A stretch of DNA of 60,342 nt, filler included. It is 8 parts of 8 records of this genome, joined end to end, with 100 filler letters (N's around TTAATTAATTAA, not from the genome) between each part and the next. Parts side by side here need not be neighbours in the genome. Positions count along the whole stretch, not along the records: positions 50,237 to 60,342 come from SRR31156797_67711; 7 more parts are not named here. The stretch is one strand, 5' to 3'. The stretch's first letter is position 1; each line of letters starts with the position of its first letter. The notes beneath the pieces are model-generated. The model did not search any database, was not told the origin of the DNA, and saw only the letters and a program-made list of their open reading frames with translations. Both the position numbers and the translations under genes were made by a program. Below, in pieces: positions 5,230 to 60,342 of this stretch.

Positions 5230-6492
5230 ATGCAAATTGATAATATTGAAATTACTTTCCTCAAAATTGATGATTATGAGGATGTTAAGAGTGCGATGAT
5301 TGAGGTGTATGCCAATATAGAATATTCATATTGGAACGAGGCTCATATTAAAAAGCTTATTCGGAAGTTTCCGGAAGGGCAGGTGGCGATAAAAATCGAT
5401 GGTGAATTGGCCGGCTGTGCGCTTTCAATTATGGTTGACTTCGATAAATTTAATTTAAAGCATACATACAAAGAAATTACTGGTAATTATACTTTTGATA
5501 CACATGATGATAAGGGTGATTTTTTGTATGGAATCGATATTTTTATTCGACCTAAATACCGTGGATTGAGACTTGGTCGCAGGTTGTATGATTATCGTAA
5601 GGAGCTATGCGAGAGATTAAACCTTAAAGGCGTGCTTTTCGGTGGACGAATTCCCAATTATCACAAATTTGCTGATGAAATTACCCCAAAAGAATACATA
5701 GAGAAGGTGAGGAAAAAGGAGATACACGATCCGGTGTTTAATTTTCAAATGTCCAATGATTTCCACCCTAAAGCAATTCTAAAGGGTTACCTCGAAGGAG
5801 ATAGTGAATCTAATGAGTATGCAGTGTTGTTGGAATGGCGCAATGTGTATTATGAAAAGCCAAGTAAAGAAGTTTCTGTGCAGAAAAAAATTATTAGGTT
5901 GGGTTTAGTTCAATGGCAAATGAGGCTTTACGCTGATTTGGATGAATTAATGCAGCAGGTAGAATATTTTGTGGATGCGGTTTCCGGTTATAGATCAGAT
6001 TTTGCACTTTTTCCGGAATTTTTTAATGCCCCGCTCATGTCTGAGTATAACCATTTGAGCGAGCCTGAAGCCATTCGAAAGTTGGCAGAGTTTACACCGG
6101 AAATAGTGAATCGTTTCGGAAAATTGTCTATTGCTTATAATATCAATATTATTACGGGAAGTATGCCCGAAATAGTAGGTGATGAACTATTAAATGTTGG
6201 TTATCTCTGTAAAAGGGATGGAGGAATTGAGCGTTTTGAAAAGCTTCATGTAACGCCAGATGAACACAAGGTTTGGGGTATGCGTGGAGGTAATATGCTT
6301 AAAACTTTTGATACGGATTGTGGTAAAATAGGCATATTGATTTGTTATGATGTTGAGTTTCCGGAATTGAGCAGGATATTATCTGATCGAGGAATGGATA
6401 TTTTATTTGTGCCATTTTTGACAGATACGCAAAACGGATATTCACGTGTCCGCAATTGTGCCCAAGCCAGAGCTATTGAAAATGAATGCTAT
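5230..6492 (+). CDS. Bifunctional GNAT acetyltransferase / carbon-nitrogen hydrolase (3'-truncated)
   Basis: GNAT motif YRGLRLGRRLY; nitrilase triad motifs FPEFF, EKLH, ICYDVEFPE. Confidence 0.9.
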
Positions 6493-6592
6493 NNNNNNNN
6501 NNNNNNNNNNNNNNNNNNNNNNNNNNNNNNNNNNNNTTAATTAATTAANNNNNNNNNNNNNNNNNNNNNNNNNNNNNNNNNNNNNNNNNNNN
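6493..6592. other. Artificial contig linker (Ns with TTAATTAATTAA); identical linkers at 11688-11787, 16969-17068, 23912-24011, 29234-29333, 40520-40619 and 50137-50236
   Basis: Identical 100-nt structure with six-frame stops; composition and gene style change across the linkers. Confidence 0.98.
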
Positions 6593-6593
6593 A

Positions 6594-8957
6594 GTTGTAG
6601 AAGATGTAAATGAGTGTCTATTTTATGGACTTGGAGCAGATGGAACTGTTGGAGCAAATAAAAACTCAGTAAAGATTATAGGTGATAAAACTGAGCTTTA
6701 TGCACAAGCATATTTTGCTTATGATTCTAAAAAAAGTGGTGGTTATACAAGGTCACATTTAAGATTTAGTAAGAACCCTATTCGTTCAACCTATCTTGTA
6801 TCAAATCCAAGTTTTGTAGCCTGTTCAAAAGAGGTTTATTTAGAACAATATGAAGTTGTAGATAAACTAAAAGAGAATGGTACTTTTTTATTAAACTCTA
6901 TTCACTCAAAAGATGAGATAGAGAGTAAAATTCCAAATAGAGTTAAAAAAATACTTGCTGATAAAAACATCAAGTTTTATATCATAAATGCTACAAAGCT
7001 AGCTCATGATATTGGACTTGGAAATAGAACAAATACTATAATGCAAGCTGCCTTTTTCAAGTTAGCAAATATCATTCCCTATGAAGAAGCAAAAGAGTAT
7101 ATGAAAGAGTATGCAAAAAAAGCTTATGGAAACAAAGGTGAAGAGATAGTTAGAATGAACTATCTTGCAATTGACCAAGGGGAGCATGGTGTTGAAGAGG
7201 TTGAAGTAAAACAACAGTGGACAGAGTATGAAGCTAAAGAGCTTGTGATAAATAGTGATTACAAAGGTTCTCAATATGTAGAAAACTTTGCAAAAATTGT
7301 TAATGCTGCAAAAGGTGATGAAATACCAGTTTCTACAATAGTAGAACTTGGAATGGAATGTGGTACCTTTGAAAATGGTTCAACTAAATATGAAAAAAGA
7401 GGAATTGCAACTATGGTTCCTCAATGGAATGAAGATACCTGTATTCAGTGTAATCAATGTGCCTTTGAGTGTCCACATGCTGTTATTAGACCATTTTTAT
7501 TAGATGAAAAAGAGTATGAGAATGCTCCAAATGGAGTAAAAGAACACTCACTTGATGCAAAAGGAAAAGAGTTTAAAGGCAAAGACTTAAAATATAAAAT
7601 CCAAGTATCTATTCTAGATTGTACTGGTTGTAATATCTGTGTTGATATTTGTCCTACAAAAGAGAAGTCTTTAAAAATGGTTCCATATGGTGTTGAAGAT
7701 GAAAATAATGAACAAGAAAATGCTGACTATTTATTTAATGACGTATCTTATAAAGACTATTTAGTAGAAAAAAACAATGTAAAAAACTCACAATTTGCAC
7801 AACCACTTTTTGAGTACCACTCAGCTTGTCCAGGTTGTGGAGAAACTCCATATATCACTCTAGCAACACAACTGTTTGGTGATAGAATGATGATTGCAAA
7901 TGCTACGGGATGTTCTTCTATTTATTCTGCTTCTGCTCCATCAACACCTTATACTAAAAATGAAAAAGGTGAAGGTCCTGCATGGGCAAACTCTTTATTT
8001 GAAGATACTGCTGAATTTGGATATGGAATGCATGCAGCAAATGAGACTATTAGAAATAGAATTGCAAGAATTATGCTAAAGAGTATGGATGAAGTATCAA
8101 ACCCTCTTAAAGTACTTTATAAAGAGTGGCTAGAGCATAGAAACAATGGAGTTAAAACTCAAGAGATAAGAGATAAACTTGTGCCTCAACTTGAAAATAA
8201 TCAAGACCAAAATGGAGTGAAAGAGTTACTATCTCTAAAAAAATATCTTGTAAGAAAATCACAATGGATGATTGGTGGAGATGGTTGGGCTTATGATATT
8301 GGATATGGTGGAGTTGACCATGTTTTATCAACGGGTGAAAATGTAAATATCTTAGTTGTAGACACTGAGGTTTATTCAAATACTGGTGGACAATCATCTA
8401 AAGCTGCAAGAGCTGGTTCTATTGCTGATTTTACAAATGATGGTAAACCAAATGCTAAAAAAGATTTAGGCTATATCTCTATGACATATGGAAATATCTA
8501 TGTAGCCCAAATAAACTCAAGGGCAAATCAAAAGCAAGCAGTACAAGCTATGAAAGAAGCAGAGGCTTATGATGGACCATCTCTAATCATCTGTTACTCT
8601 CCATGTATTGCCCACGGCATTCAAGGTGGACTTATGAAATCAGTTGAGCAAGGACAACTTGCAACTGATTGTGGATACTGGCCTATATATACTTTTGACC
8701 CAAGAAAAATAGATGAAGGTCAAAATCCTATTAAAATATATGGGAAAAAACCAAATTGGGATAGATATGAAGAGTTCTTACTAAGAGAGAACAGATATAG
8801 GTCTTTAAAGAAACTAAACCCAGAGCATGCCGATGAACTATTAAATAAAAACCAGAAAGATGCTCAATATAGATATAGACAACTTCAAAGATGGGCTTCT
8901 ATGGATTATAGTGATGAACTAGAAGTAAGTGTTATAGAAGAGGCTAAGGTTGAATAA
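6594..8957 (+). CDS. nifJ: Pyruvate:ferredoxin/flavodoxin oxidoreductase, single chain (5'-truncated)
   Basis: Frame is open from 6594 (YGLGADGTVGANKNS, YDSKKSGG); two ferredoxin motifs; ACPGCGE; GGDGWAYDIG TPP motif. Confidence 0.96.
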   Translation, partial: VVEDVNECLFYGLGADGTVGANKNSVKIIGDKTELYAQAYFAYDSKKSGGYTRSHLRFSKNPIRSTYLVSNPSFVACSKEVYLEQYEVVDKLKENGTFLLNSIHSKDEIESKIPNRVKKILADKNIKFYIINATKLAHDIGLGNRTNTIMQAAFFKLANIIPYEEAKEYMKEYAKKAYGNKGEEIVRMNYLAIDQGEHGVEEVEVKQQWTEYEAKELVINSDYKGSQYVENFAKIVNAAKGDEIPVSTIVELGMECGTFENGSTKYEKRGIATMVPQWNEDTCIQCNQCAFECPHAVIRPFLLDEKEYENAPNGVKEHSLDAKGKEFKGKDLKYKIQVSILDCTGCNICVDICPTKEKSLKMVPYGVEDENNEQENADYLFNDVSYKDYLVEKNNVKNSQFAQPLFEYHSACPGCGETPYITLATQLFGDRMMIANATGCSSIYSASAPSTPYTKNEKGEGPAWANSLFEDTAEFGYGMHAANETIRNRIARIMLKSMDEVSNPLKVLYKEWLEHRNNGVKTQEIRDKLVPQLENNQDQNGVKELLSLKKYLVRKSQWMIGGDGWAYDIGYGGVDHVLSTGENVNILVVDTEVYSNTGGQSSKAARAGSIADFTNDGKPNAKKDLGYISMTYGNIYVAQINSRANQKQAVQAMKEAEAYDGPSLIICYSPCIAHGIQGGLMKSVEQGQLATDCGYWPIYTFDPRKIDEGQNPIKIYGKKPNWDRYEEFLLRENRYRSLKKLNPEHADELLNKNQKDAQYRYRQLQRWASMDYSDELEVSVIEEAKVE

Positions 8958-9053
8958 CCTTAGTCTACTGTCTATACAAAAGATTAAAAACTATACAACT
9001 AAATTTACACGACTTTTTACTAACTTGATATACTAAAATAAAAAAGGTTAGCA

Positions 9054-9428
9054 ATGAGCCTATTTAATATATCAATAAAAGAGACTCTAAAAAGAGATAA
9101 ACATGAGTTCTTAGACTCTTTATACACAAAACTATTAGACAACAATGACTATGAATCAATCAAAGGAAAAAATAGTTTTGAAATCAATAAATGTAGACTA
9201 AATACTTTTCTTAGCTTTAATACAAAAGTCTTAATTGACTCAAAAGAGATTCAAGTAGATGCAGAACTACATGATACACTTCTTTTAACTATTATTATAG
9301 TTCTTGCAATTTTATTGACCTATGGAATTGGAGTTGTTATAGTAGTTGCATTTGCATACTTACAAAAAAGAAAAGCAGAAGCTTATCTAAAAGATATTAT
9401 TTCAAAAGTCAATATAAACAATAACTAA
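9054..9428 (+). CDS. Hypothetical membrane protein
   Basis: RBS AAGG; C-terminal hydrophobic hairpin. Confidence 0.7.
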   Translation: MSLFNISIKETLKRDKHEFLDSLYTKLLDNNDYESIKGKNSFEINKCRLNTFLSFNTKVLIDSKEIQVDAELHDTLLLTIIIVLAILLTYGIGVVIVVAFAYLQKRKAEAYLKDIISKVNINNN

Positions 9429-50136: not shown

Positions 50137-50237
50137 NNNNNNNNNNNNNNNNNNNNNNNNNNNNNNNNNNNNNNNNNNNNTTAATTAATTAANNNNNNNN
50201 NNNNNNNNNNNNNNNNNNNNNNNNNNNNNNNNNNNNA

Positions 50238-50750
50238 GTCAAAGAGCCGTCGTCGTCGTTTTCTTCCCATGATTTGAATGATCTCATGCAGGCTGTGAAG
50301 TCCAAACACCGAACCAAAGAGGTTGAGGCCAGGGTTACCAGAGCATTGAAAGATGGTCATAATCTTGAATATCTTCGTCGATGCATCGGGTACGCCAATG
50401 AGAAGAGCAATGGAAGTGATTACAAGGCGTATTTGGGCAAAAGCATTGATCACCCTGAATGGCATGAGGGCTTTGATCCTGATGAGCATATCAAGAAACT
50501 TCAGGCCGATATCGACAAACTAAGGGAACGGCAGGAAGAGCAGCAACTAGAACAAAACAAACTGAGAACGCGTCATGAGAAAATAACCGCCATGATCGAT
50601 GAGGTAGACACCGACGCTTTGGATGCCTTCATAGACGGCCAGGAACTCAACACCGTGGATCGAGGCAGGTTTAAGCGTGGGAAACGGGCAATGTTGCGGA
50701 GGAGGTTTGTGTCTGAATTTGCCGACCGGGGCCGGAAAAAAACGTCATGA
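50238..50750 (+). CDS. C-terminal half of the HTH replication-initiator-like protein that starts at 59850
   Basis: In frame across the junction; DnaD/replisome-organizer-like segment DYKAYLGKSIDHPEW. Confidence 0.75.
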   Translation, partial: VKEPSSSFSSHDLNDLMQAVKSKHRTKEVEARVTRALKDGHNLEYLRRCIGYANEKSNGSDYKAYLGKSIDHPEWHEGFDPDEHIKKLQADIDKLRERQEEQQLEQNKLRTRHEKITAMIDEVDTDALDAFIDGQELNTVDRGRFKRGKRAMLRRRFVSEFADRGRKKTS

Positions 50751-51025
50751 GCCATTCAGACCGAATTATCAGCTTACACACGAATGCACCGGAGGGAAGT
50801 CTTTCCGAGTGGGAAGACGAATTCATAATTGATAGTGAGTTTGAGATACCGAAATACAGTAGCGTGTGTCATCGCTGCGCTCATTTGACAAATGGATATG
50901 AAAGGCGATGCTTGGCGTTTCCTAATGGCATCCCCATGGAAATTTGGATGGGAGAAAATAATCATTCGGAAGTTCATCCAGAGCAAGAGAATGACATTGT
51001 CTTTGAGTCGTTGCTGGATGAATGA
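50747..51025 (+). CDS. Small Cys/His-rich hypothetical protein
   Basis: ATGA overlap with the upstream stop; CHRCAH..CLAFPNGIPMEI..H..QENDIVFE. Confidence 0.7.
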   Translation: MSHSDRIISLHTNAPEGSLSEWEDEFIIDSEFEIPKYSSVCHRCAHLTNGYERRCLAFPNGIPMEIWMGENNHSEVHPEQENDIVFESLLDE

Positions 51026-51333
51026 TCCCCTTTCCCCTGCCCGGTGACGGATCTTGCCTTGTCTGCAAAAACGAAAAAGTTTTCGTATCTGGTAACAAAT
51101 CGTTCAAAAACGGTACCCGAGTTCCGTTTTCACCACCTCGAATCTCGAACCGATTTTCAGGCAAAAAACCGGCAAAAGCGCAGTCAATTGCGCTTTTCTA
51201 CGACATTCGAAGCGCTCAAAACGGTGTTGTTTCCAACCCCAAACGAATAATATTCTGCCTGCACGATCTGTAACCATTGACGTTCAACAGTCTGGAATTA
51301 CACCATAACAACCACACAACGTATCGAACCTTT

Positions 51334-51361
51334 ACGTACGATAAGATGTATTATGTTAACT
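51334..51361 (+). other. dif-like XerC/XerD site 1
   Basis: ACGTACGATAA-GATGTA-TTATGTTAACT versus E. coli dif GGTGCGCATAA-TGTATA-TTATGTTAAAT. Confidence 0.8.
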
Positions 51362-51502
51362 TTTTTGAGGGGTCGGAGCACTAAGGTATCCACCGCATGA
51401 GTATGACAAAACCCATGCCGGGTGGGTGTTTTGATGGAATACACGGATTCCGGAATTTTGATGGGCGCTGGTTGCTGGATATCGAATAGAAACTTTAGAC
51501 GC

Positions 51503-51531
51503 TTGACATAACTTTTGTTGAGTAGTAGACT
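51503..51531 (+). promoter_or_regulatory. Sigma70-type promoter
   Basis: TTGACA-17 bp-TAGACT. Confidence 0.65.
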
Positions 51532-51669
51532 GCTTGCACAAATTGTGAAGCACGAGCCATTGCCTCATCCTTAGGGACTCGCTTTGGCCTAAGCCGACTC
51601 GCTTAAATGGAAAACATCCTTCGACCTCCGCGTAATGGTGAGCATCGTAGGATACGCCAAAAGCACCAT

Positions 51670-51737
51670 AAGGGCCTCATCGGAGAGATAAATCAACGCC
51701 ATAGTTGTTTTGTTTCTCTGATGAGGCCCTTTTTTTT
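51670..51737 (+). terminator. Leader terminator/attenuator before the HTH-primase operon
   Basis: 17-bp stem AAGGGCCTCATCGGAGA/TCTCTGATGAGGCCCTT followed by a T-run. Confidence 0.65.
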
Positions 51738-51758
51738 GTAATTTTTTTGGAGGTATTT

Positions 51759-52001
51759 ATGAGTAGCAATCTGTTGAAAGAACTCTCAATAAAGCAACCG
51801 CACCCTTGCAAAATCCATTTCGAGGGACTCAACAACCAGCCACTTGCCCGAGCACTCGGGATCAGTCCGAACTATTGCTATGACGTTTTGAATGGATCGA
51901 AGAGGCCAGGGCCGGACCTGAATAAACGGATCTATGATCTGGCTGAACGGGTCATGGCTGAGAGAGAGGCGGAAGAGCAGGCCGAATGCGCGCATGCGTA
52001 A
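51759..52001 (+). CDS. Small Cro/Xre-like HTH protein
   Basis: GGAGG RBS; NQPLARALGISPNYCYDVLNGSKRPG. Confidence 0.75.
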   Translation: MSSNLLKELSIKQPHPCKIHFEGLNNQPLARALGISPNYCYDVLNGSKRPGPDLNKRIYDLAERVMAEREAEEQAECAHA

Positions 52002-52080
52002 TTTTCAAACTCCAGAAACAGCAAAGCCCAACGATCTTTTAGGCGGGGATTAGTCGGGCTTTGCAAAGGAAAATTTATAG

Positions 52081-54798
52081 ATGGATACTACCAAAACTGA
52101 GACTCAAAAGCAATCAAAAGTTAAACTTTCACCGGATGCTATCAGCCGCCTCTATGCTGCATGCAATGACATACTCACGTATGATGACTTAGATCTACGG
52201 GGACAGAAGAATGGTAGAGAATTTCAAAAAATCGACTGCATTCATTGTGGTGGAAAGGGATGCTGTTTTACTGATCCGAACAAAAAGCAGATCACATGTC
52301 GGAAGTGCAACCGAACCGAAGATTACGCCGGATATTATAAATATAAGCATGGTTTCAAATCATTTGAGATGTTCAAGGCAATCGTTCCGGTATTGTTCAA
52401 CGATGAGATGGAGGCCGTCAGGTATCAGGGTGCTAAAGAGGATTTTCTGAATTTCAATACCGCCCCTAAACAATCTACCGGGCAGGAAGAAAGAGGTCCC
52501 GATCCGGCAACCATCGACCCGGAGACCGCTAAGGCCATCAAGAAGAACCAGGACATTTTCAATCGGTTCTGCAACGGCCAGGTAAAACACAATCAAATTC
52601 TAAACCTATTCAAACTCCGAGGCATCCCTGAAGAGCATGTCAGGCCGGAACTCGGAGATAGCATCCGTTGGAAAAGCAATCACGGCGACCCGAAAAAACC
52701 GGATGAGCAGCGTGACGTGGTGGTGATAGCCTGTCATTCCCTGCCCGGTAAAGAACACACTTCACAGCAGTACTTCACGCCGGACAATTCATATTTCCCT
52801 GGGACAAAGACCCGTAGAAAATCTTCACCTGCCATCGGACATGGATTTCATTTTGCTGGCGCTCCCCTGGATGCTCCTACCACAAACAAGCTGTACGTCA
52901 CTGAGAGCATCATGAATGCGTTTTCACTGCTCCCCTATGTGGATACCTCCACCTCTTGCGTTGTCTCTATTCTAAGCAGTAGTGAGGCCCGGAAGAAGGC
53001 GGAGATGCTGAAGCCGTGGGTTAAGGATTTCAAGGTGGTGGTCTCATGTGGTGACAATGACAAGGCCGGTAATGGAATGGATAACACCATTGCCAAAGTC
53101 CTAAAAGATACCGTCGCTGTATGGGGGCTTAATTGGGGGCGAGACGACCCGGATGATACCAATAAGCTCCAACAGGCCGGGAGTTGTGATCGACTGCGAG
53201 AGCTGGTGAAAAAGCCGATGCCTATTAAGATCAAGGATGATGATCCGCCTATAAAAACCACCAAAAATGATGAAGAGTGGGAAGACCCGCAGGCCATAGA
53301 AGAAGAGTTACTACCCGTTGACAGTCTGCCAGATGACGCCATTCCAACGCCGTATAAGGCATGGGTTAGGGACATATCCCACAGGTGGGCTGTTCCTGCC
53401 GATTTTCCGTTCATCTCAACTCTTATTGTCACAAGTGCCATTATCGGCACCGGAGCAGTCATCAAACCAAAAAAACGTGACGACTGGACAGTTGTACCGA
53501 ATCTATGGGGTGGGATCATTGGAGATCCATCTGTTATGAAATCGCCGGTTTTAAATGAGGTCATTAATAAATCTATGGGCCGGTTGGAAGCAACTGCAAG
53601 GCAAAAACTCCATGATGACCTGGACGAGTTTAAAGCTGATAAATTTATTTTTGATGAGACCGTCAAGGCGAAAGAGAACGATATCAAAAAGGCCATCAAA
53701 AATGGAGGGACAACTGATGAGCTTAAATCTGAATTAAAAGATCTGAATCGGCACGTTATGGATAAACCGACCGAGCGAAGATACAAAGTCAACGACTGCA
53801 CCATTGAAAAATATGTTGAACTGAACAAGGAAAACCCCAGGGGGCTCCTTTATTTTCGAGATGAGTTGATTGGTTTTTTTAAGCGATTAGACAAAGAGGG
53901 AAATGAGGCTGATAGGGCGTTATGTATGGAGGCATGGAACGGCCAGGGCAACTATACACAAGACCGGATAGGTAGGGGCAGTATTCGAGCAAAAAACCTT
54001 TGCATGTCCCTAATTGGGGGGATTCAGCCGGATAAAATCATTGGATATCTCAATGATGCCATGAATGGTGGAAATGATGGTTTTGTTCAACGACTACAGA
54101 TGATGGTTTATCCAGATAGAAAGAAGTGGGAATTCATAGACCAATATCCAGACACCGACGCCAAAAACACTTTTTACACCGTGATTGAGGTGCTGGCTGA
54201 AATGCGTGATTCTGACTTTATAGAAGCTGGCGCAGATATGCCGGATGATGAAGATTTTCCACATTTCAAGTTTGATGAACCATCCTACCAACTTTTCAAA
54301 GCCTGGATGTCCGACCTTCAACAAAAAATTGAAAACGTTGATGAGCATCAAATCATTCGGGAACATCTCAGTAAATATAAATCCCTAATGCCATCGTTGG
54401 CGCTTATTTACCATTTGATCGAAGTTGCATCTGGTGTGAGTGGTAGTGAGTCTATCCCGGAGCATTGCACTAAACAGGCCATAGCATGCGTCAAATACCT
54501 TGAATCCCACGCAAGGCGTATCTATGGCATGGCTATTGATTCGAGTAGCACGGGTGCAGTGGCATTATCTCAAAAGATACTTGCGGGAAAGGTGAAGAGT
54601 CCGTTCACCGCCAGGGATATCTACATCTCCGGTTGGAGCAAATTGAACAACTCAGATGATGCTCAAAAGGCTATTGATTATTTGGATGGTAAGAACTGGA
54701 TCAAAGAGACCGAACAGAGAAACCCACTGAAAGGTGGTAGGCCGAAAACCGAGTATATTATCAATCCGAAAGTGTTTGATATCCAAAAAGCACAATAG
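52081..54798 (+). CDS. Zn-finger / Toprim primase fused to a DUF3987 (YfjI-family) helicase-like domain
   Basis: CIHC..CRKC; VTES..GDNDKAG; VPNLWGGIIGDPSVMKS, RDEL, DRIGRG, GGIQP, DGFVQR; C-terminal wHTH GGRPKTEYIINP. Confidence 0.85.
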   Translation: MDTTKTETQKQSKVKLSPDAISRLYAACNDILTYDDLDLRGQKNGREFQKIDCIHCGGKGCCFTDPNKKQITCRKCNRTEDYAGYYKYKHGFKSFEMFKAIVPVLFNDEMEAVRYQGAKEDFLNFNTAPKQSTGQEERGPDPATIDPETAKAIKKNQDIFNRFCNGQVKHNQILNLFKLRGIPEEHVRPELGDSIRWKSNHGDPKKPDEQRDVVVIACHSLPGKEHTSQQYFTPDNSYFPGTKTRRKSSPAIGHGFHFAGAPLDAPTTNKLYVTESIMNAFSLLPYVDTSTSCVVSILSSSEARKKAEMLKPWVKDFKVVVSCGDNDKAGNGMDNTIAKVLKDTVAVWGLNWGRDDPDDTNKLQQAGSCDRLRELVKKPMPIKIKDDDPPIKTTKNDEEWEDPQAIEEELLPVDSLPDDAIPTPYKAWVRDISHRWAVPADFPFISTLIVTSAIIGTGAVIKPKKRDDWTVVPNLWGGIIGDPSVMKSPVLNEVINKSMGRLEATARQKLHDDLDEFKADKFIFDETVKAKENDIKKAIKNGGTTDELKSELKDLNRHVMDKPTERRYKVNDCTIEKYVELNKENPRGLLYFRDELIGFFKRLDKEGNEADRALCMEAWNGQGNYTQDRIGRGSIRAKNLCMSLIGGIQPDKIIGYLNDAMNGGNDGFVQRLQMMVYPDRKKWEFIDQYPDTDAKNTFYTVIEVLAEMRDSDFIEAGADMPDDEDFPHFKFDEPSYQLFKAWMSDLQQKIENVDEHQIIREHLSKYKSLMPSLALIYHLIEVASGVSGSESIPEHCTKQAIACVKYLESHARRIYGMAIDSSSTGAVALSQKILAGKVKSPFTARDIYISGWSKLNNSDDAQKAIDYLDGKNWIKETEQRNPLKGGRPKTEYIINPKVFDIQKAQ

Positions 54799-54824
54799 AG
54801 ATTGTTTTTTTACCGATAATACTT

Positions 54825-55091
54825 TTACCGGGCAGAAGGAAAGGGTTTTGATGGTTTTGATGGTGCTGTTCCTGGGCATATCTCTATTTTTTTTTGATGG
54901 CTTTGAGGTACCCCTCTTAATATCCATTTTATATATATATACATATATATATAAATGAACTATATAATACGAAATGTGGTGTGAATTGATAAAAAAAAAT
55001 AGGATATCCCTAAAAGGGGCACCATCAAAACCTACAAAACCCCCAAGCCCATTAAATGAGCCAGAATAAACTCTTCCCTTCTGCCCGGTAA
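54825..55091. promoter_or_regulatory. Putative replication origin: nested inverted repeats and iterons around an AT-rich core
   Basis: TTACCGGGCAGAAGG 54825-54839 with its complement at 55077-55091; GGTTTTGATGGTGC 54853-54866 with its complement at 55019-55032; repeated TTTTGATGG; (TA)n core. Confidence 0.65.
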
Positions 55092-55361
55092 TAATCCTGC
55101 CGGGTGGAGAGGTGCCGTTGTCCCGATCTGACCCACCACAACATATAGTGTTGTCAGGAAAGTATACCTTGTTGGTTGGTTTGGAAATAATGACGATCAT
55201 TTCAAATTTGTCTAAAAGTTGTTGAACACGTTTTGAGATAAAACTCTTGCGTTTTGTTCATTACTACGGCTATTATATATAGAAAAGTAATGGTTTTTGT
55301 ATAGTAATAAATCCTGAGATTGGCATAATTTCGGGAAATTCGATCTGGGGCGGGGGAATCA

Positions 55362-55613
55362 ATGGCAACAAAAATTAGAAAACACCGGTTGATGAGATTG
55401 ACGGATCTGCGGCGGTTCATGGCTGCTAAGGTCAATCAACTCAATGCCGGTGAGATCGATACGGACACCGCCAGGGCGTTTGGGTATTTGTGTTCATGCC
55501 TGAAAGACATCATCAAGGAGTCCGACATTGAGAGCCGGGTCAAGGAACTTGAAACGCAACTGGCAGAACGGGATGCAGCTACGACAGGGAATGGACGGAG
55601 GACATATCGATGA
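55362..55613 (+). CDS. Small hypothetical protein (helical, coiled-coil C-terminus)
   Basis: GGGGG RBS; ATGA-coupled to the next gene. Confidence 0.7.
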   Translation: MATKIRKHRLMRLTDLRRFMAAKVNQLNAGEIDTDTARAFGYLCSCLKDIIKESDIESRVKELETQLAERDAATTGNGRRTYR

Positions 55614-55891
55614 ACAGGTCATTGGAAAAACGAGTATCTCGGTTGGAGCTGGAACTGAACCCACCGCCACCGGATCAGCAGATTGTGATCACCGCCAATT
55701 TTGGCCGGAAAGATGCGCCGGTGAAATCATGGAGCGGTGTGGAGCGGTTGCCAGATGAGGCGCCGGATGAGCATCGGGAACGTGCTGTTGATACCCTGGT
55801 GGAGCGATCCCGACAGCGGGGCCATGGGGTGACACTGATCGTTGCGGAACCGGACAATGAAATGAATAATGGAGAGATAAAAAATGATTGA
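55610..55891 (+). CDS. Small hypothetical protein, paralog of 56581-56898
   Basis: SLEKRVSRLE ... ERLPDEAPDEHRERA. Confidence 0.65.
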   Translation: MNRSLEKRVSRLELELNPPPPDQQIVITANFGRKDAPVKSWSGVERLPDEAPDEHRERAVDTLVERSRQRGHGVTLIVAEPDNEMNNGEIKND

Positions 55892-56579
55892 TAGAATTAA
55901 AAATGTAGCATCTCAATACCGAAAACAGTTGGGGGAAATTAGTCCCGACCTGAAAAATGAAGTGCAGAATCAAAAAAAAGCTGAGGTCCACAAAGCTCTC
56001 AAATCTGGTGTGGAGGCATTACGGGTCGAGGCAGACACATTGGTTCGAGATTTCCGGCAGGTTCGGGAGCGGAACCTTGACCGCCGGTATCTGGTGGCGA
56101 CCAGGGCAACCAACGGGATCAAAGATCTGACCCTGGGTGAATCTCAGTTGATCAACATGATTGATAAGCTGCCCCCCTCTCTTCTGCCCGGTCTGGCATC
56201 GGATGACAAAGTTACTGGGTATCATCCCCTTGTCCGATTGAGCCTATTGAACCGTGCTGAAGGGATGACAAATCCGGTCGATGGAGTCAAGGTGGGTGGA
56301 TCTGCCGCCTATGCTGAGGCCGTTGATGGTCAGAAGGTGGGGCATGCCATTGTTGATTCTATCCTAAAATCCGAGTCGGTCAATATCGATGGGTTGCGTT
56401 CCGAGGCTGCTAAAATTTCCGAGACGTGTTTAGCTATGGCTGATCTCATGGATGCCTCCCAGCAGTCGAACCGAGGCTATCAGAAAATGTATTCAAAGTA
56501 TGCGGAAGAGGTGATCAATGACACCCAGGACGCCATAGAATCGTTTCAGAATGCGTTTCAGCCAAAACAGGTGGGTTGA
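55884..56579 (+). CDS. Hypothetical protein
   Basis: GGAG RBS; overlapping operon structure. Confidence 0.7.
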   Translation: MIDRIKNVASQYRKQLGEISPDLKNEVQNQKKAEVHKALKSGVEALRVEADTLVRDFRQVRERNLDRRYLVATRATNGIKDLTLGESQLINMIDKLPPSLLPGLASDDKVTGYHPLVRLSLLNRAEGMTNPVDGVKVGGSAAYAEAVDGQKVGHAIVDSILKSESVNIDGLRSEAAKISETCLAMADLMDASQQSNRGYQKMYSKYAEEVINDTQDAIESFQNAFQPKQVG

Positions 56580-56580
56580 C

Positions 56581-56898
56581 ATGGGTAATCTGCAAAAGCG
56601 CATAGAACGGTTAGAAAAGCACATTGTGATCGATGATGATCAACCCGCATGTATTGTCATCAGCACCGTGGATGCCCGGAGGGGCGCACCGGAGCCACCG
56701 GATGATGTGGATGATTATCATGTCCTCCGCACTGATCGTGGTCGAACGTATGAGCGTGGGAAAGATGAGGCGCCGGAAGACTTCAAATATCGTGCTGCCG
56801 ATGCGGAACGTGCGGTCATGCAGCCGGGGGCCGTGCCGGTATTTTTCGGGGAGAGATCCACGGATTCAGAAAATCAGAGCGTTGTTTATAACGAATAA
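56581..56898 (+). CDS. Small hypothetical protein, paralog of 55610-55891
   Basis: NLQKRIERLE ... ERGKDEAPEDFKYRA. Confidence 0.65.
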   Translation: MGNLQKRIERLEKHIVIDDDQPACIVISTVDARRGAPEPPDDVDDYHVLRTDRGRTYERGKDEAPEDFKYRAADAERAVMQPGAVPVFFGERSTDSENQSVVYNE

Positions 56899-56982
56899 TT
56901 GAGATGTTCAGGAATGAGCATGTTACACACTAGAGTTACAAAAAACCTGAAAACCCCCGTCAATAGGGCGTCTTCAGGTTTT

Positions 56983-57010
56983 GGGTACGATAATATACAT
57001 TATGTTAACT
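56983..57010 (+). other. dif-like XerC/XerD site 2
   Basis: GGGTACGATAA-TATACA-TTATGTTAACT; same orientation as site 1. Confidence 0.82.
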
Positions 57011-57352
57011 TTATGAGTGTGTCCAATTCAAGTATCTGAAATAACATAGAAAAGTGTCAAATCCACCATGTTGCAATGTAGTATTGGATTTCGACTCTGT
57101 TTATAAATGTATCGGTATTTTGTGACATTCCCGAGATAAATACCGATGCCCCACCACGAATATCGAATGTGGGAATCACCGGCGATTGTGCATTAAAAAA
57201 TAAAAAAAAATACAGGAAACGGGATGGCTGGTGATTCCCTCCCCTTTTTTAAACCGTATCAAAAAGCATTGCCTAAAAGCCCCTCCATCAGCCGTTCGGC
57301 ACCTGCCCCATATCATAGCATTCGGATAGAAAACACCTCTTAAATCAGAGGC

Positions 57353-57402
57353 TTGACACCACCCATAGATTTGTGTATTATATCGTTATAAACAACGATA
57401 AT
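57353..57402 (+). promoter_or_regulatory. Sigma70 promoter with an overlapping operator
   Basis: TTGACA(57353)-17 bp-TATTAT(57376), then inverted repeat TATCGTT-N6-AACGATA. Confidence 0.7.
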
Positions 57403-57417
57403 CACATGGGGGATGTT

Positions 57418-58233
57418 ATGGCAGCCAAAAGACTGGATATCACCGGAGCGGAGTACAGGCATCGAGTCAGGGAACAGCAAAAAGCCCGGTTCAAAAGGCA
57501 TCAAGAGAAAATGAAATCCGATGGGTTCAAGATGACATCGGTGTTCATGAGTGAGGGGTTGAGATCTGAGATTGACCGGATCATGAAAACCGATGGCGTC
57601 ACCAAATGGCAGGCCATGGAGCGGATCTACCAAGAGTACTTAAATAACGTTAGAAATAACGATAATGGCAAAAGAGAGATCCATCGAATATACCCAATTC
57701 CTGATGCCGTCATTGATGCAATCCCTAAAGAGTACATGGGAGATGGAGTCAAAAACATTGTCCATAGCGCTCTTATTTTCCACACACAACGTGCTGTGAC
57801 CGACGCCCTGCGTTCAGTGTACCGAAATAATCAATGCACCGGTATCGGCAAATTCATAGAGTTGCTGAAAAAGTCGTTGAGGGTGGATACCGAGCAGGAA
57901 CGAAAAAAACTTACTCCGCCGGAAGAGTACCCCAATCAGCAGCCGCTTTTGTTCGATGATGAGCCGAAACACAACCGCGTTTGCGGTGGGCCAACAGATC
58001 TGTCATTCATCGACCCGTGTGAGGGTATGACCAGGGCCGAACGCCGGGAGTACATTGATAAATTCATCATGGATCGATTGGAGGTTGCCGGGCAGGGTGG
58101 GAAAATGACGTACCAGCAGGTGTGCGAGGCGCTGGAATATGCCGGTATCAAAACCCCGAGGGGTAATGATAAATGGGCGATTGGTAGCGTCAACACCGCA
58201 TTCAGACGGATCATGAAAAACCGGGAGGAATGA
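57418..58233 (+). CDS. DNA-binding protein with an RHH-like N-terminus and a recombinase-domain-like C-terminal HTH
   Basis: MTSVFMSEGLRSEID; TYQQVCEALEYAGIKTPRGNDKWAIGSV; no catalytic serine-recombinase domain seen. Confidence 0.65.
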   Translation: MAAKRLDITGAEYRHRVREQQKARFKRHQEKMKSDGFKMTSVFMSEGLRSEIDRIMKTDGVTKWQAMERIYQEYLNNVRNNDNGKREIHRIYPIPDAVIDAIPKEYMGDGVKNIVHSALIFHTQRAVTDALRSVYRNNQCTGIGKFIELLKKSLRVDTEQERKKLTPPEEYPNQQPLLFDDEPKHNRVCGGPTDLSFIDPCEGMTRAERREYIDKFIMDRLEVAGQGGKMTYQQVCEALEYAGIKTPRGNDKWAIGSVNTAFRRIMKNREE

Positions 58234-58271
58234 TCATGTAACCATGGCGCTGGCTGATTCAATATGTTGGT

Positions 58272-58627
58272 GTCTGACCCCTGGGCGGGTGGGGAAAATC
58301 TTCAAATGTGCGCCAAGCGCACATTTAGAAAAGTCTGACCCCTGGGCGGGAATGGGCTGTTTACCGAGTAAACTTATTAACCGTTGGTAAACTTCTGCCC
58401 CACGCGGGCGGGTGGATGAAAATGTCAACTTGTCGCGACGTCGCGACATTTTAAAAGTCTGACCCATGCGGATGCGGTGCAAGCAAAGTGTTTTTTTGAA
58501 TTTTTAGACTCCATAAAAAAGGCGTCAATTTTCACGATGTCGTGAGGAATTAACAGTCTAACCCGTGGGCGGGTGGGGGGAAATGGTAGATTTCTACCAT
58601 TTTGGTCAGATGCCATGTCTGACCCGT
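58272..58627 (+). repeat. Non-CRISPR repeat-spacer array: six degenerate GTCTGACCCNTGGGCGGGTGG repeats with palindrome-centred spacers
   Basis: Repeats start at 58272, 58333, 58393, 58457, 58556 and 58617 (last one truncated). Confidence 0.8.
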
Positions 58628-58860
58628 CATTGGTGGCTTGGAGATTGGTGGAATGCCTGTAAGTGGGGGGATGATAGGCGGAAAGAGATTTGTAAGCAGA
58701 TTGGTGTGGAATACGATACTGCTAAAGATTGTGGTTGGGTTGCAAGAAACTTTAAATTGTCTTTACGTAAAGACAATTTAACATTCAGCCACCACAAAGA
58801 AGTCTGCCAAATAAATGACTCTGCCACCAAATGTCAACTTCTCGACTGGTGCCTATCTAG
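58628..58860 (+). pseudogene. Internal fragment of an LmbU-like HTH gene
   Basis: WWLGDW..IGVEYDTAKDCGWVARNFKLSLRKDNLTFSHHKEV..LLDW; begins right after repeat 6 without its own start. Confidence 0.6.
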
Positions 58861-59047
58861 TGCCTACCTGGGAAACCTTCCTCCCTGCCCGGTGATCAAT
58901 CTCATTTTTCTCTTGACCACGACCCCACTTTCATTCTATCCAAAAAGAGCCGTGGCAAAATCCACGGTGTCGGTTTGACAGCCGATAAGTTCGGCGCAGG
59001 TGAGCGCATTCAATCCATCACCACCTGTGTATCTATACGCCGAAAAC

Positions 59048-59118
59048 GGGCAGTATAGGTGGGAGACTTTCGGGTCTGCCGGTTCCGAACTCCGGTCTGT
59101 CAACCCACCTTGCTGTCC
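59048..59118 (+). ncRNA. c4-type antisense RNA (P1 C4 / P4 CI family)
   Basis: Cloverleaf closed by GGGCAG..AGGTGGG/CCCACCT.GCTGTCC; hairpin AGACTTTCGGGTCT; b' CCGAACT and a' CTGTCAA have complementary targets on both sides. Confidence 0.85.
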
Positions 59119-59173
59119 TTTTCTATTTTGACAGGTAGAAAGGGCGTAACCCCTTAAGTTCGGAGCACCCACC

Positions 59174-59596
59174 ATGCAAAACGAAACCATCATGAACACC
59201 ATTCCCCAGCCGTTACCACGGAACTATGATCCCAGAGACAAAATTGTACAGGATCTGTCGGTACGCCATTCAAAACTATATTTTTACGTTTCAGTTTTAG
59301 GCACTGAAACCCCCATCGATACGGTTCAATTGGATTTATTCGATGACGTCCTATCCTATGAAGTTGAAAAATTAGAAGGGCTTTGCCGACTGCACCTTGA
59401 GACCGATGAGGGGCGCTCAACGATCCTCGGAGATATCATGCTGAGTCAGATAAAATCATTTGCAGATCGGTTAAATGAAATGTCATTTCATGTTGGGAGA
59501 AATATTGGTGATATTGAGTTGACATGCGCCTATCTTCACGCCAGAAGCTTCGATCCGGGCACCGTATTTGATGCAGAGTTGAAGCCTGTTCAATAA
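59174..59596 (+). CDS. Hypothetical protein under c4 control
   Basis: RBS GGAG overlaps the b2 target; no family recognised. Confidence 0.7.
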   Translation: MQNETIMNTIPQPLPRNYDPRDKIVQDLSVRHSKLYFYVSVLGTETPIDTVQLDLFDDVLSYEVEKLEGLCRLHLETDEGRSTILGDIMLSQIKSFADRLNEMSFHVGRNIGDIELTCAYLHARSFDPGTVFDAELKPVQ

Positions 59597-59679
59597 TGAG
59601 ATCGCTTGGAGCGATGGCGCAGGAAAAATAAATAGTCCTTGACGATATCGTCTGAATATCGCTTTTATGACGAAGTGAA

Positions 59680-59765
59680 AATAAAAAAACCCCGTTGATG
59701 CGACGAACATCAACAGGGTTTAGAAATTGGTATGGAGCGTTCATGCAGGAACACTCACCGCCACC
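59680..59765 (-). ncRNA. Candidate counter-transcribed copy-control RNA
   Basis: Minus-strand TTGAAT(59800-59795)-17 bp-TATCCT(59777-59772); hairpin 59687-59721 followed by a U-run. Confidence 0.55.
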
Positions 59766-59849
59766 GAGTGAAGGATAAGACAATCCTGATTTAGATTCAA
59801 GAGTTTTATCCGTTTTTCTGCCAGCGCTCCCAAAACTAAGGGAGTTCTC

Positions 59850-60342
59850 ATGAGTACCATACGTGTATCCAAGTCCGATAATTTCAGCATCATTTCTAAC
59901 CATCATCTCCGTAATAAAAATCTATCTCTGAAGGCGGTTGGGCTTTTAACCATACTGTTATCGCTCCCCGATAATTGGAATGCCAATGTCAATCACCTTG
60001 TCACTATCTGCCGGGACGGAAAGAAGGCCATTTATTCAGCCATAAAAGAGTTAAAAGAGGCGGGATACATTGAACATGTGACTATCAGGGATGCCAATGC
60101 AAAGATTTTAAAATGGGAGTACATTGTCTATGAGCACCCCATTGAAAAGGCCGTGAACAGTGAAGAAAAGCTACTTTCCCAAAAGGGACAAGTAGCTAAG
60201 GTACAAGTAGCTAAGGGCGATGGAATAATAAAGACTAAAAGTCCTTTACGAAAAACTAATAGTATTAAAAACGACGACGTACCGGCACCACTCACACCTC
60301 CACCTGACCCGATACCGGAAGTCAAAGAGCCGTCGTCGTCGT
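59850..60342 (+). CDS. N-terminal half of a 327-aa HTH replication-initiator / replisome-organizer-like protein (continues at 50260)
   Basis: Manual translation MSTIRVSKSDNFSIISNHHLRNKNLSLKAVGLLTILLSLPDNW..DGKKAIYSAIKELKEAGYI..WEYIVYEHP; missing from the ORF track. Confidence 0.8.
   Translation, partial: MSTIRVSKSDNFSIISNHHLRNKNLSLKAVGLLTILLSLPDNWNANVNHLVTICRDGKKAIYSAIKELKEAGYIEHVTIRDANAKILKWEYIVYEHPIEKAVNSEEKLLSQKGQVAKVQVAKGDGIIKTKSPLRKTNSIKNDDVPAPLTPPPDPIPEVKEPSSS

Follow-up and report, generated by a model that had tools for sequence, protein, structure and literature searches.

A 10,106-nucleotide (nt) contig, the last of eight joined in a 60,342-nt stretch of DNA (the window), is in our estimation best explained as a circular, extrachromosomal, plasmid-like replicon of ~10.1 kb from an uncultured Desulfamplus-like member of the Desulfobacterota, with replication apparently under the control of an RNA of the C4 type and with mimics of dif that would engage the Xer recombinases of its host; we put the probability of this reading at roughly 55%. 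The eight contigs are unrelated (GC content 0.26-0.56) and separated by artificial spacers (N44+ttaattaattaa+N44), and the one under study, referred to below as the element, occupies positions 50237-60342 (GC content 0.46). An earlier note on this DNA had already spoken of a plasmid, a designation that is supported by the presence of a replication initiator (Rep), a primase-helicase and an origin-like region, by a plausible closure of the circle, and by the lack of an integrase, capsid or relaxase. The coordinates of all features are collected in Table 1.

Topology and replication genes

The ends of the element share an exact overlap of 23 nt, the longest found (50237-50259 is identical to 60320-60342), which would yield a circle of 10,083 nt; none of the other seven contigs of the window possesses an end overlap of 8 nt or more. 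When the ends are joined, a reading frame that begins at 59850 runs uninterrupted across the junction for 327 codons and meets its first stop at 50750. The overlap and this Rep-like frame, both described in the earlier note, were thus reproduced, and the two halves of the joined protein co-occur in single proteins elsewhere: P0121 (329 aa) is 68-70% identical to the N-terminal half and 39% identical to the C-terminal half (E = 4e-28), and both halves are also found within P0124, L102 and the first Rep (345 aa) of L022, a 7.7-kb metagenome contig. L022 carries two diverged modules, each consisting of a protein similar to the N-terminus of o286 (see below) and a Rep, ~6.2 kb apart (151-1930 and 6311-7702). 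Both of its Reps carry a 'VKE(P/T)SSS' linker, the same linker that forms the end overlap of the element, and it is possibly here that Reps of this family recombine or exchange domains. The other seven contigs of the window (1-50136) show no DNA or protein similarity to the element.

Topology was judged from Logan contigs (k = 31) of the single public run containing the sequence. One contig of that run is identical to all 10,106 nt, at a depth of 350, and a separate 37-nt contig, at a depth of 600, fits both ends of the element by 30 nt each; the 23-nt overlap arises because both ends overlap this 37-nt node by 30 nt (30 + 30 - 37 = 23). The node is shared by a third contig (1,900 nt, depth 280), which matches 50237-50293 with 2 differences and then diverges, so that closure is one of two pairings at a branch node and there is no clean circular unitig. 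The depth of the shared node, 600, fits self-closure of the element (depth 350) plus a second molecule at a depth of ~250-280, the competing branch being at 280. The contig contains no other truncated genes and holds a full replication gene set, and a second run of the same sample contains next to no sequence words of the element. From these contigs a circular topology appears likely. The earlier claim of a complete 10,083-bp circle consequently stands as far as the overlap and the coherent joined Rep are concerned, the closure itself, which passes through a branched node, being likely and not proven.

Fifteen open reading frames (ORFs; 13 on the plus strand and two on the minus strand, a 297-aa ORF antisense to the helicase gene being left out) were compared with the Pfam, PHROGs, NCBIfam and PADLOC hidden Markov model (HMM) libraries. 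Family matches were limited to the Rep, the primase-helicase, a weak HTH_3 match and a sub-threshold LmbU match. In agreement with the earlier note, which had listed no integrase, capsid or relaxase, none of the 15 ORFs matched an integrase, recombinase, capsid, portal, terminase, relaxase, Zot-type ATPase or defence family in the four libraries; PADLOC returned one chance-level match and nothing else, the two scanned minus-strand ORFs had no family match, and no tRNA genes were found in the element. All supported genes lie on the plus strand and about eight ORFs (92, 83, 83, 93, 231, ~105, 271 and 140 aa) have no family, which agrees with the one-stranded layout and the many unrecognised genes remarked upon before.

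The N-terminal half of the Rep matches HTH_36 (5.5e-8; 32.9 bits against a cut-off of 25) and, in PHROGs, phrog_4707 'replication initiation' (2.6e-23), phrog_428 (3.8e-21) and phrog_186 'DnaD-like helicase loader' (7.9e-19), and by these matches the element encodes a replication initiator of its own, as a plasmid would. Plasmid records (303) and phage records (277) contain the Rep domain with about the same frequency, always at less than 60% identity. With the whole element as query, megablast gave no match in the plasmid collection or in 50,697 phage records.

The second replication protein combines the domains of a primase and a helicase: DUF3987 (2.8e-67), Toprim_2 (4.2e-6) and phrog_2373 'DNA helicase' (1.7e-25), behind a Cys-rich N-terminus. 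Its helicase half has 817 relatives, the best of them 55-63% identical over the C-terminal half and encoded by metagenome-assembled genomes (MAGs) of Desulfamplus and other Desulfobacterota, which suggests a Desulfamplus-like host. K487, D594 and E595 are invariant among the relatives; the N-terminal priming module is swapped. Among the nearest relatives, L002 encodes a tyrosine integrase (5e-29) upstream of the helicase and L001 a small terminase (Terminase_2, 1.2e-10) downstream of it, indicating that this helicase lineage is often found in island- or satellite-like settings. The two contigs look like satellite- or island-type cargo in Desulfamplus: L001 carries, at 5680-6135, 7360-8427 and 8484-9380, genes for the small terminase, for a Fic protein and for a type I specificity subunit, and in L002 the integrase lies at 88-858. 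Single-protein scans found no close relatives of the helicase in the genome contig collection or in IMG/VR; tblastn against plasmid and phage records matched the helicase half alone, at less than 36% identity, in 20 plasmid and 5 phage records, and a sequence search of the PDB with the helicase gave no match.

Directly after the helicase gene lies an imperfect palindrome whose core (54923-54963) is pure TA and whose GC content, 0.35, is the minimum of the element. In an unbiased word count, the two 9-mers TTTTGATGG and ACCGGGCAG, which recur in this palindrome, were the commonest non-simple 9-mers, each present seven times in the element; in 200 shuffles the maximum for any 9-mer was 5 (mean 3.3), and the mean for TTTTGATGG itself was 0.10. 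Copies of ACCGGGCAG start at 51037, 52477, 52741, 54827, 55081, 56184 and 58885, on both strands and in genes as well as in the palindrome. Repeated sites beside an AT-rich stretch, as looked for in a plasmid, are thus present as a sequence pattern, and the repeat and palindrome patterns are typical of iteron-type origins or operators, making this region a putative origin. From their families, the Rep and the primase-helicase would be expected to act at the TA-rich core bracketed by TTTTGATGG and ACCGGGCAG.

The C4-type RNA and the dif-like sites

Upstream of rep, the region 59043-59123 matches the Rfam C4 family (RF01695, clan CL00128) over its full length with 41.3 bits (E = 4e-6; gathering score 45), and 58936-58987 matches c4-a1b1 (RF03163) with 28 bits (E = 1.1e-4; gathering score 46.7). 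In the minimum free energy (MFE) fold of the former just two segments are unpaired, the UUCCGAACU loop and CUGUCAA, and these are complementary to AAGTTCGG and TTTGACAG, respectively. The element contains exactly two copies of each of these 8-mers, one on either side of the RNA, and the downstream copy of the second target, AAGTTCGGA, overlaps the GGAG Shine-Dalgarno sequence of o140 (ATG at 59174). The two exposed segments characteristic of C4 RNAs, complementary to upstream and downstream targets with the latter at a ribosome-binding site, are therefore both recognisable. When the flanks were shuffled, two non-overlapping C4-complementary 7-mers appeared in both flanks in only 3 of 20,000 shuffles. 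Taken together, the sequence features point to a complete C4 module of the P1/P4 type directly upstream of the o140-Rep genes.

The arrangement has at least one parallel. The Desulfamplus MAG contig L017 carries, in this order, a helicase gene, a c4-2 RNA (54.3 bits, above the gathering score of 41), a 108-aa ORF, an o140-like ORF and a Rep gene (33% identity), showing that the order of RNA, o140 and Rep is conserved at least once. The o140-like ORF of L017 encodes 194 aa, stands directly upstream of the L017 Rep and is 31% identical to o140 over 84 aa; a word search returned no other o140 homologs.

By the logic of the sequence and the precedents of P1 and P4, an RNA of ~80 nt would be transcribed within the o140-rep leader, and its two unpaired regions would pair with targets on the same transcript. 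Such pairing would cover the ribosome-binding site of o140, so that o140, and probably rep too, would be throttled as copy number rises; the circuit may thus serve copy-number control, incompatibility or 'immunity'. The CI RNA of P4, which precedes the P4 replication operon, follows the same target logic. As for the characterised members of the C4 family, PMC8201110 names phages P1 and P7 and describes the c4 RNA of P1 as controlling icd and ant.

A 33-nt repeat in the element resolves to two 28-mers in direct orientation, 5,649 nt apart, each with the 11+6+11 layout of dif and with inner arms ATAA ... TTATGT.AA, as compared with the delta-proteobacterial dif sequences in PMC2731167. According to a table of that paper, the dif of Desulfovibrio vulgaris agrees with the sites of the element in its XerD arm and in GATAA (PMC2731167). 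The core ATAATRTAYATTATGTHAA occurs exactly once in four of five Desulfobacterota genomes of 4-8 Mb (reversed-pattern control, 0), and a looser core was found, always in single copy, in 36 of the 61 genomes sampled from the order to which Desulfamplus magnetovallimortis belongs (2 matches in the control). The single site of D. magnetovallimortis has a XerD arm identical to that of the element and the same GATAA, and in two of five genomes checked the GC skew changes sign at the site (±20 kb). With two dif-like 28-mers, a core that is single-copy in genomes and no recombinase in the element, the use of host Xer, which the earlier note had proposed, is supported by sequence. XerC and XerD of the host would recognise both 28-mers, most likely for multimer resolution; integration at the host dif, in the manner of Xer-exploiting integrative mobile elements (IMEXs), is a possible addition, and the direct pair is possibly the scar of an Xer-mediated fusion or module gain.

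The central regions of the two sites differ at 3 of 6 positions, and the arcs between them are alike in GC content (0.463 and 0.458), their tetranucleotide distance lying at the 55th percentile of rotations. The same run also contains a 4,945-nt contig (depth 92) that matches 56982-57012 (the 28-mer plus 3 nt) with 1 difference and could be the host dif or a second element with an Xer site. In IMG/VR, the site arms with a free centre occur in four unrelated contigs, a number near hand-estimated chance, none of which has a protein in common with the element. One IMG/VR contig, L148 (10,262 nt), has a site at 228-252, near the contig end, that is 93% identical to site 2 over 29 nt; it may be another Xer-exploiting element, and it has no protein in common with the one described here.

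Remaining genes and alternative readings

Besides the replication genes, the RNA module and the Xer sites, the element contains several ORFs and putative regulatory sites (Table 1). The 80-aa protein encoded ahead of the primase-helicase has a helix-turn-helix (HTH) match below the cut-off (HTH_3, 6.3e-4) and weak relatives in L001 and L002, encoded upstream of the helicase or close to it. The promoter-like stretch and hairpin before it (51503-51740), in which no Rfam match was obtained, could be a leader or attenuator, or a small RNA, upstream of the HTH-primase genes. In the four-gene block, a weak paralogy (27% identity, E = 2e-4) links the 93-aa (55610-55891) and ~105-aa (o115; 56581-56898) ORFs, which both begin with an 'L(E/Q)KR(V/I)xRLE' helix. 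The 231-aa protein of the same block, o231, was modelled with a predicted local distance difference test (pLDDT) score of 89 and has only five relatives among 1.84e9 representatives, and an alignment-based scan of IMG/VR revealed none. Foldseek searches of its model against the PDB and BFVD gave nothing at E ≤ 1e-3 (best E 0.085), the best Z in VIA wide was 9.8, under the noise level of ~13 for helical proteins, and the ESM Atlas returned unnamed clusters only (recognition 1549 against a mark of 2300).

The N-terminal ~75 aa of o286 recur in the proteins encoded ahead of Rep in L022 (40% identity over 73 aa) and, judged by eye, resemble a ribbon-helix-helix (RHH) domain. Its AlphaFold2 model was unusable (pLDDT 51), and the ESM Atlas gave unnamed clusters at 0.90 or below. 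For o137 the LmbU-family match was sub-threshold (NF038070, 7.1e-14; 52 bits against a cut-off of 125), and the viral contig L123, which likewise encodes a Rep and an o137-like protein, had matches in PHROGs for the Rep and a homing endonuclease only. The strong hairpin between o140 and rep could act as a terminator on the minus strand, perhaps stopping a transcript that runs counter to the rep leader, or as a weak attenuator on the plus strand; a promoter scan found no promoter on the minus strand.

Table 1. Positions of the predicted features of the element, counted along the whole window
Feature	Position	Strand	Remarks
Terminal overlap, 23 nt	50237..50259	+	within Ser-rich linker of Rep; from k-1 overlaps with the 37-nt graph node
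Rep, C-terminal half	50260..50750	+	joined protein 327 aa
Two small ORFs, 92 aa (CxxC...C) and 83 aa	50747..51273	+	overlap Rep stop; no family
dif-like Xer site 1	51334..51361	+	XerC arm ACGTACGATAA, centre GATGTA, XerD arm TTATGTTAACT
Two TTTTGATGG copies	51429..51464	+	second 9-mer cluster
Promoter-like TTGACA-17-TAGACT, then ~200 nt ORF-free and hairpin	51503..51740	+	hairpin arms 28 nt, followed by T-run
HTH protein, 80 aa	51759..52001	+	start ATG 51759, Shine-Dalgarno GGAGG; directly upstream of primase-helicase
Primase-helicase, 905 aa	52081..54798	+	Zn-finger, Toprim and DUF3987 (YfjI-type)
Origin-like imperfect palindrome, 267 nt	54825..55091		outer ACCGGGCAG arms, three TTTTGATGG with one inverted, TA core
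Four-gene block: 83, 93, 231 (all-alpha) and 105-115 aa	55362..56898	+	no family
dif-like Xer site 2	56983..57010	+	XerC arm GGGTACGATAA, centre TATACA, XerD arm TTATGTTAACT
Sigma-70-like promoter TTGACA-17-TATTAT, then palindrome TATCGTTATAAACAACGATA	57353..57400	+	11/12, best in element; operator candidate
o286, 271 aa	57418..58233	+	candidate regulator
Four 23-nt direct repeats (GTCTGACCCCTGGGCGGGTGGGG-like), palindromes interspersed	58272..58578	+	candidate iteron or operator array
o137, 137 aa	58565..58978	+	LmbU-family-like DNA-binding region (residues 22-86); 3' end enters C4 target region
Upstream C4 target pair, TTTGACAG ... AAGTTCGG	58974..58994	+	starts 58974 and 58987; c4-a1b1-like
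C4-type antisense RNA (candidate)	59043..59123	+	MFE -35.1; hairpin loop UUCCGAACU, unpaired junction CUGUCAA
Downstream C4 target pair, TTTGACAG ... AAGTTCGGA	59127..59164	+	starts 59127 and 59156
o140, 140 aa	59174..59596	+	translation start is predicted C4 target
Hairpin, 15 bp, long T-run	59687..59721	-	between o140 and rep
Rep, N-terminal half	59850..60342	+	wHTH (winged HTH), DnaD-like initiator domain; continues at 50260

Several observations weigh against the replicon that we propose. With regard to topology, closure passes through a branch node shared with the 1,900-nt contig and was seen at contig level, and the sole public run with the sequence may be its very source and so not independent. 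Partition, toxin-antitoxin and mobilisation genes were not recognised among the scanned ORFs, and the ~8 unassigned ORFs may leave room for a packaging or hijacking function. Both Rfam matches in the element are under their gathering scores, the c4-2 RNA of L017 is without clear flanking-target pairs, and a C4-clan RNA was present in just one of the 19 related loci scanned. As for the Xer sites, no GC-skew switch was seen within ±20 kb in three of five genomes checked, and the full 28-mer of site 2, allowing up to 3 mismatches, was found in none of 301 genomes. A dif-like site was absent from all 133 related loci, including 18 genomic helicase loci (a loose pattern gave 4 matches in 1.6 Mb against 11 in the control), which makes such sites a trait of this element and not of its family, and no integrated copy of the element was observed. 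Finally, two direct Xer sites should tend to split the circle, yet both are present in it.

The earlier note had gone further and seen in the element a satellite dependent on a helper phage. Such a satellite, in its plasmid state, would resemble P4, use host Xer in place of an integrase, be restrained by the C4 RNA and be packaged by an unknown helper on which the four-gene block would act. The size and one-strand layout of the element are compatible with this, half of its genes are orphans, a small terminase or an integrase neighbours the nearest helicase relatives, and an RNA of a phage-associated family stands ahead of the replication genes, as it does in P4. These hints are circumstantial: Pfam and PHROGs revealed no terminase, capsid, Sid/Psu/Delta-like or packaging family, the fold of o231 has no specific match (the Foldseek and VIA values given above being helical-bundle noise), neither the helicase nor o231 has a close relative in IMG/VR, no phage record was matched by megablast, the Rep domain is as frequent in plasmids as in phages, and a cos or pac site would be unrecognisable without a known helper. 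Dependence on a helper has no direct support, and we hold it to be unlikely. A mobile, capsid-less P4-like replicon combining XerCD in place of an integrase, C4 'immunity', passage into and out of the chromosomal dif or fusion and splitting at its two mimics of dif, and the engagement of a helper phage by the orphan genes, and thus a hybrid of plasmid, IMEX and satellite, appears decidedly improbable. Two further candidates were rejected, as neither a Zot/pI-type ATPase nor a rolling-circle Rep of an inovirus or other filamentous phage was present among the 15 ORFs, and neither the integrase nor the packaging module of a satellite of the phage-inducible chromosomal island (PICI) type was found in the element (Pfam and PHROGs in both cases).

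It is also conceivable, if quite unlikely, that the contig is only the part of a larger plasmid, phage or array that lies between two copies of the 37-nt Rep-linker, in which case the end overlap would be an effect of the de Bruijn graph. The ends do meet solely via the 37-nt node, the 1,900-nt contig continues Rep-like for 57 nt with 2 differences, the depth of the node, 600, can also be read as roughly 2 x 300, and L022 illustrates that two regulator-Rep modules with the same linker can lie ~6 kb apart. Yet the depths of 350 and 280, with a 25% difference between them, are more compatible with two molecules than with one, no second contig enters the node from the opposite side among the four contigs examined, the replication gene set is full with no other gene truncated, and the join restores a natural Rep architecture (327 aa against 329 aa in P0121). 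A very improbable reading, lastly, is that of an IMEX, or of a tandem of two IMEX-type modules (5,649 + 4,434 nt) left by Xer excision or fusion, which would normally reside at the chromosomal dif of the host. A direct dif-like pair is the expected remnant of Xer integration or cointegration, there is no integrase in the element, the depth-92 contig with its near-identical 28-mer could be the host dif, and the literature reports Xer-mediated plasmid cointegrates in Acinetobacter (PMC5790767) and integrase-less IMEXs as established (PMC5357621, PMC9765430). The two arcs, however, show no difference in composition, leaving the cointegrate idea unsupported, and in L017 a single contig unites the helicase gene with those for C4, o140 and Rep, no dif-like site separating them, which points to one replicon. 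Contigs of the single run, a weak test, contain no junctions between chromosome and element; the element is at a depth of 350, the candidate host contig at 92, and the known IMEXs (PMC5357621) comprise filamentous phages and large islands but no replicon like this one. A plasmid-like circle remains the reading that we prefer.

Comparison with known systems

A close analogue in organisation is P4, a satellite phage-plasmid of the same size class with one large primase-helicase and a plasmid life. P4 has an integrase, a cos site and the helper-manipulating genes sid, psu, delta and epsilon, and its left operon consists of the CI RNA followed by the alpha primase-helicase. In P4 as in the element, an RNA of the C4/CI type from the leader of the replication operon acts, or would act, on flanking complementary sites, and short binding motifs are repeated in two clusters around the helicase gene. 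A large primase-helicase and a C4/CI-type RNA are thus common to both, although the helicase family differs from that of P4 alpha: the helicase of the element is of the DUF3987/YfjI type, and the element has in addition a winged-helix Rep and dif-like sites. The P4 genes for integration and helper control were not found, neither an integrase (Pfam, PHROGs and NCBIfam) nor, among the ORFs at 55362-58233, counterparts of sid, psu, delta or epsilon (Pfam and PHROGs).

The immI region of P1 and P7 (c4 RNA - icd - ant) offers a close model for the putative RNA circuit, with its C4 fold, its flanking target pairs and its downstream target at the next ribosome-binding site. It differs in what follows: in place of icd and ant, the element has an orphan ORF of 140 aa and then a replication initiator; the C4 match of the element scores 41.3 bits against a gathering score of 45, and both the host phylum and the type of element are different.

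Cases of Xer exploitation fall into two groups. IMEXs (CTXphi, VGJphi, TLCphi, the gonococcal genetic island GGI, EludIMEX-1 and Legionella LME-1) resemble the element in having a mimic of dif and no recombinase of their own (PMC5357621 and PMC9765430); they comprise filamentous phages of the rolling-circle type and islands of 29-57 kb, whereas the element combines a Rep with a primase-helicase and carries two direct, canonical-looking sites. A dif-like attachment site without a recombinase of its own, the hallmark of an IMEX, is nevertheless present. Plasmid-borne XerC/XerD sites form the other group and include ColE1 cer, pSC101 psi and the pdif sites of Acinetobacter, the last of which occur as pairs in inverted orientation. 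The element shares with these a plasmid location, and differs from them in its two direct 28-mers with 6-nt centres, in the lack of recognisable accessory sequences and in its phylum. PMC5790767 and PMC6449649 assign to plasmid Xer sites either the resolution of multimers or a role as borders of exchangeable modules and cointegrates.

Islands with DUF3987/YfjI helicases, PICI-like or P4-like and represented here by L001 and L002, share with the element a small HTH gene followed by a primase-helicase of ~900 aa that is 48-55% identical over its C-terminal half. The element is without the integrase and small terminase of these islands, and the N-terminal priming module is swapped among the relatives.

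To our knowledge, next to nothing is known of the mobile elements in sulfate-reducing and related Desulfobacterota. If circularity, the RNA circuit and the use of Xer all prove true, a small double-stranded replicon would join the filamentous phages and large islands as an exploiter of Xer, and the control of a replication initiator by a C4-type RNA would be found outside enterobacterial phages; the compact set of origin, Rep and helicase might then also provide a potential vector backbone for organisms short of genetic tools. Should they not be confirmed, the element would be one more cryptic environmental plasmid. No such replicon was found in the literature on Xer, dif and IMEXs, a search that did not address the combination of C4 and rep, for which a printed precedent is possible. 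Each of the parts is known from P4, P1 and P7, IMEXs, plasmid Xer sites or helicase islands; it is their combination in one predicted replicon of the Desulfobacterota, with a Rep and a primase-helicase, a C4-type RNA before rep, two mimics of dif and no recombinase, that appears to be new.

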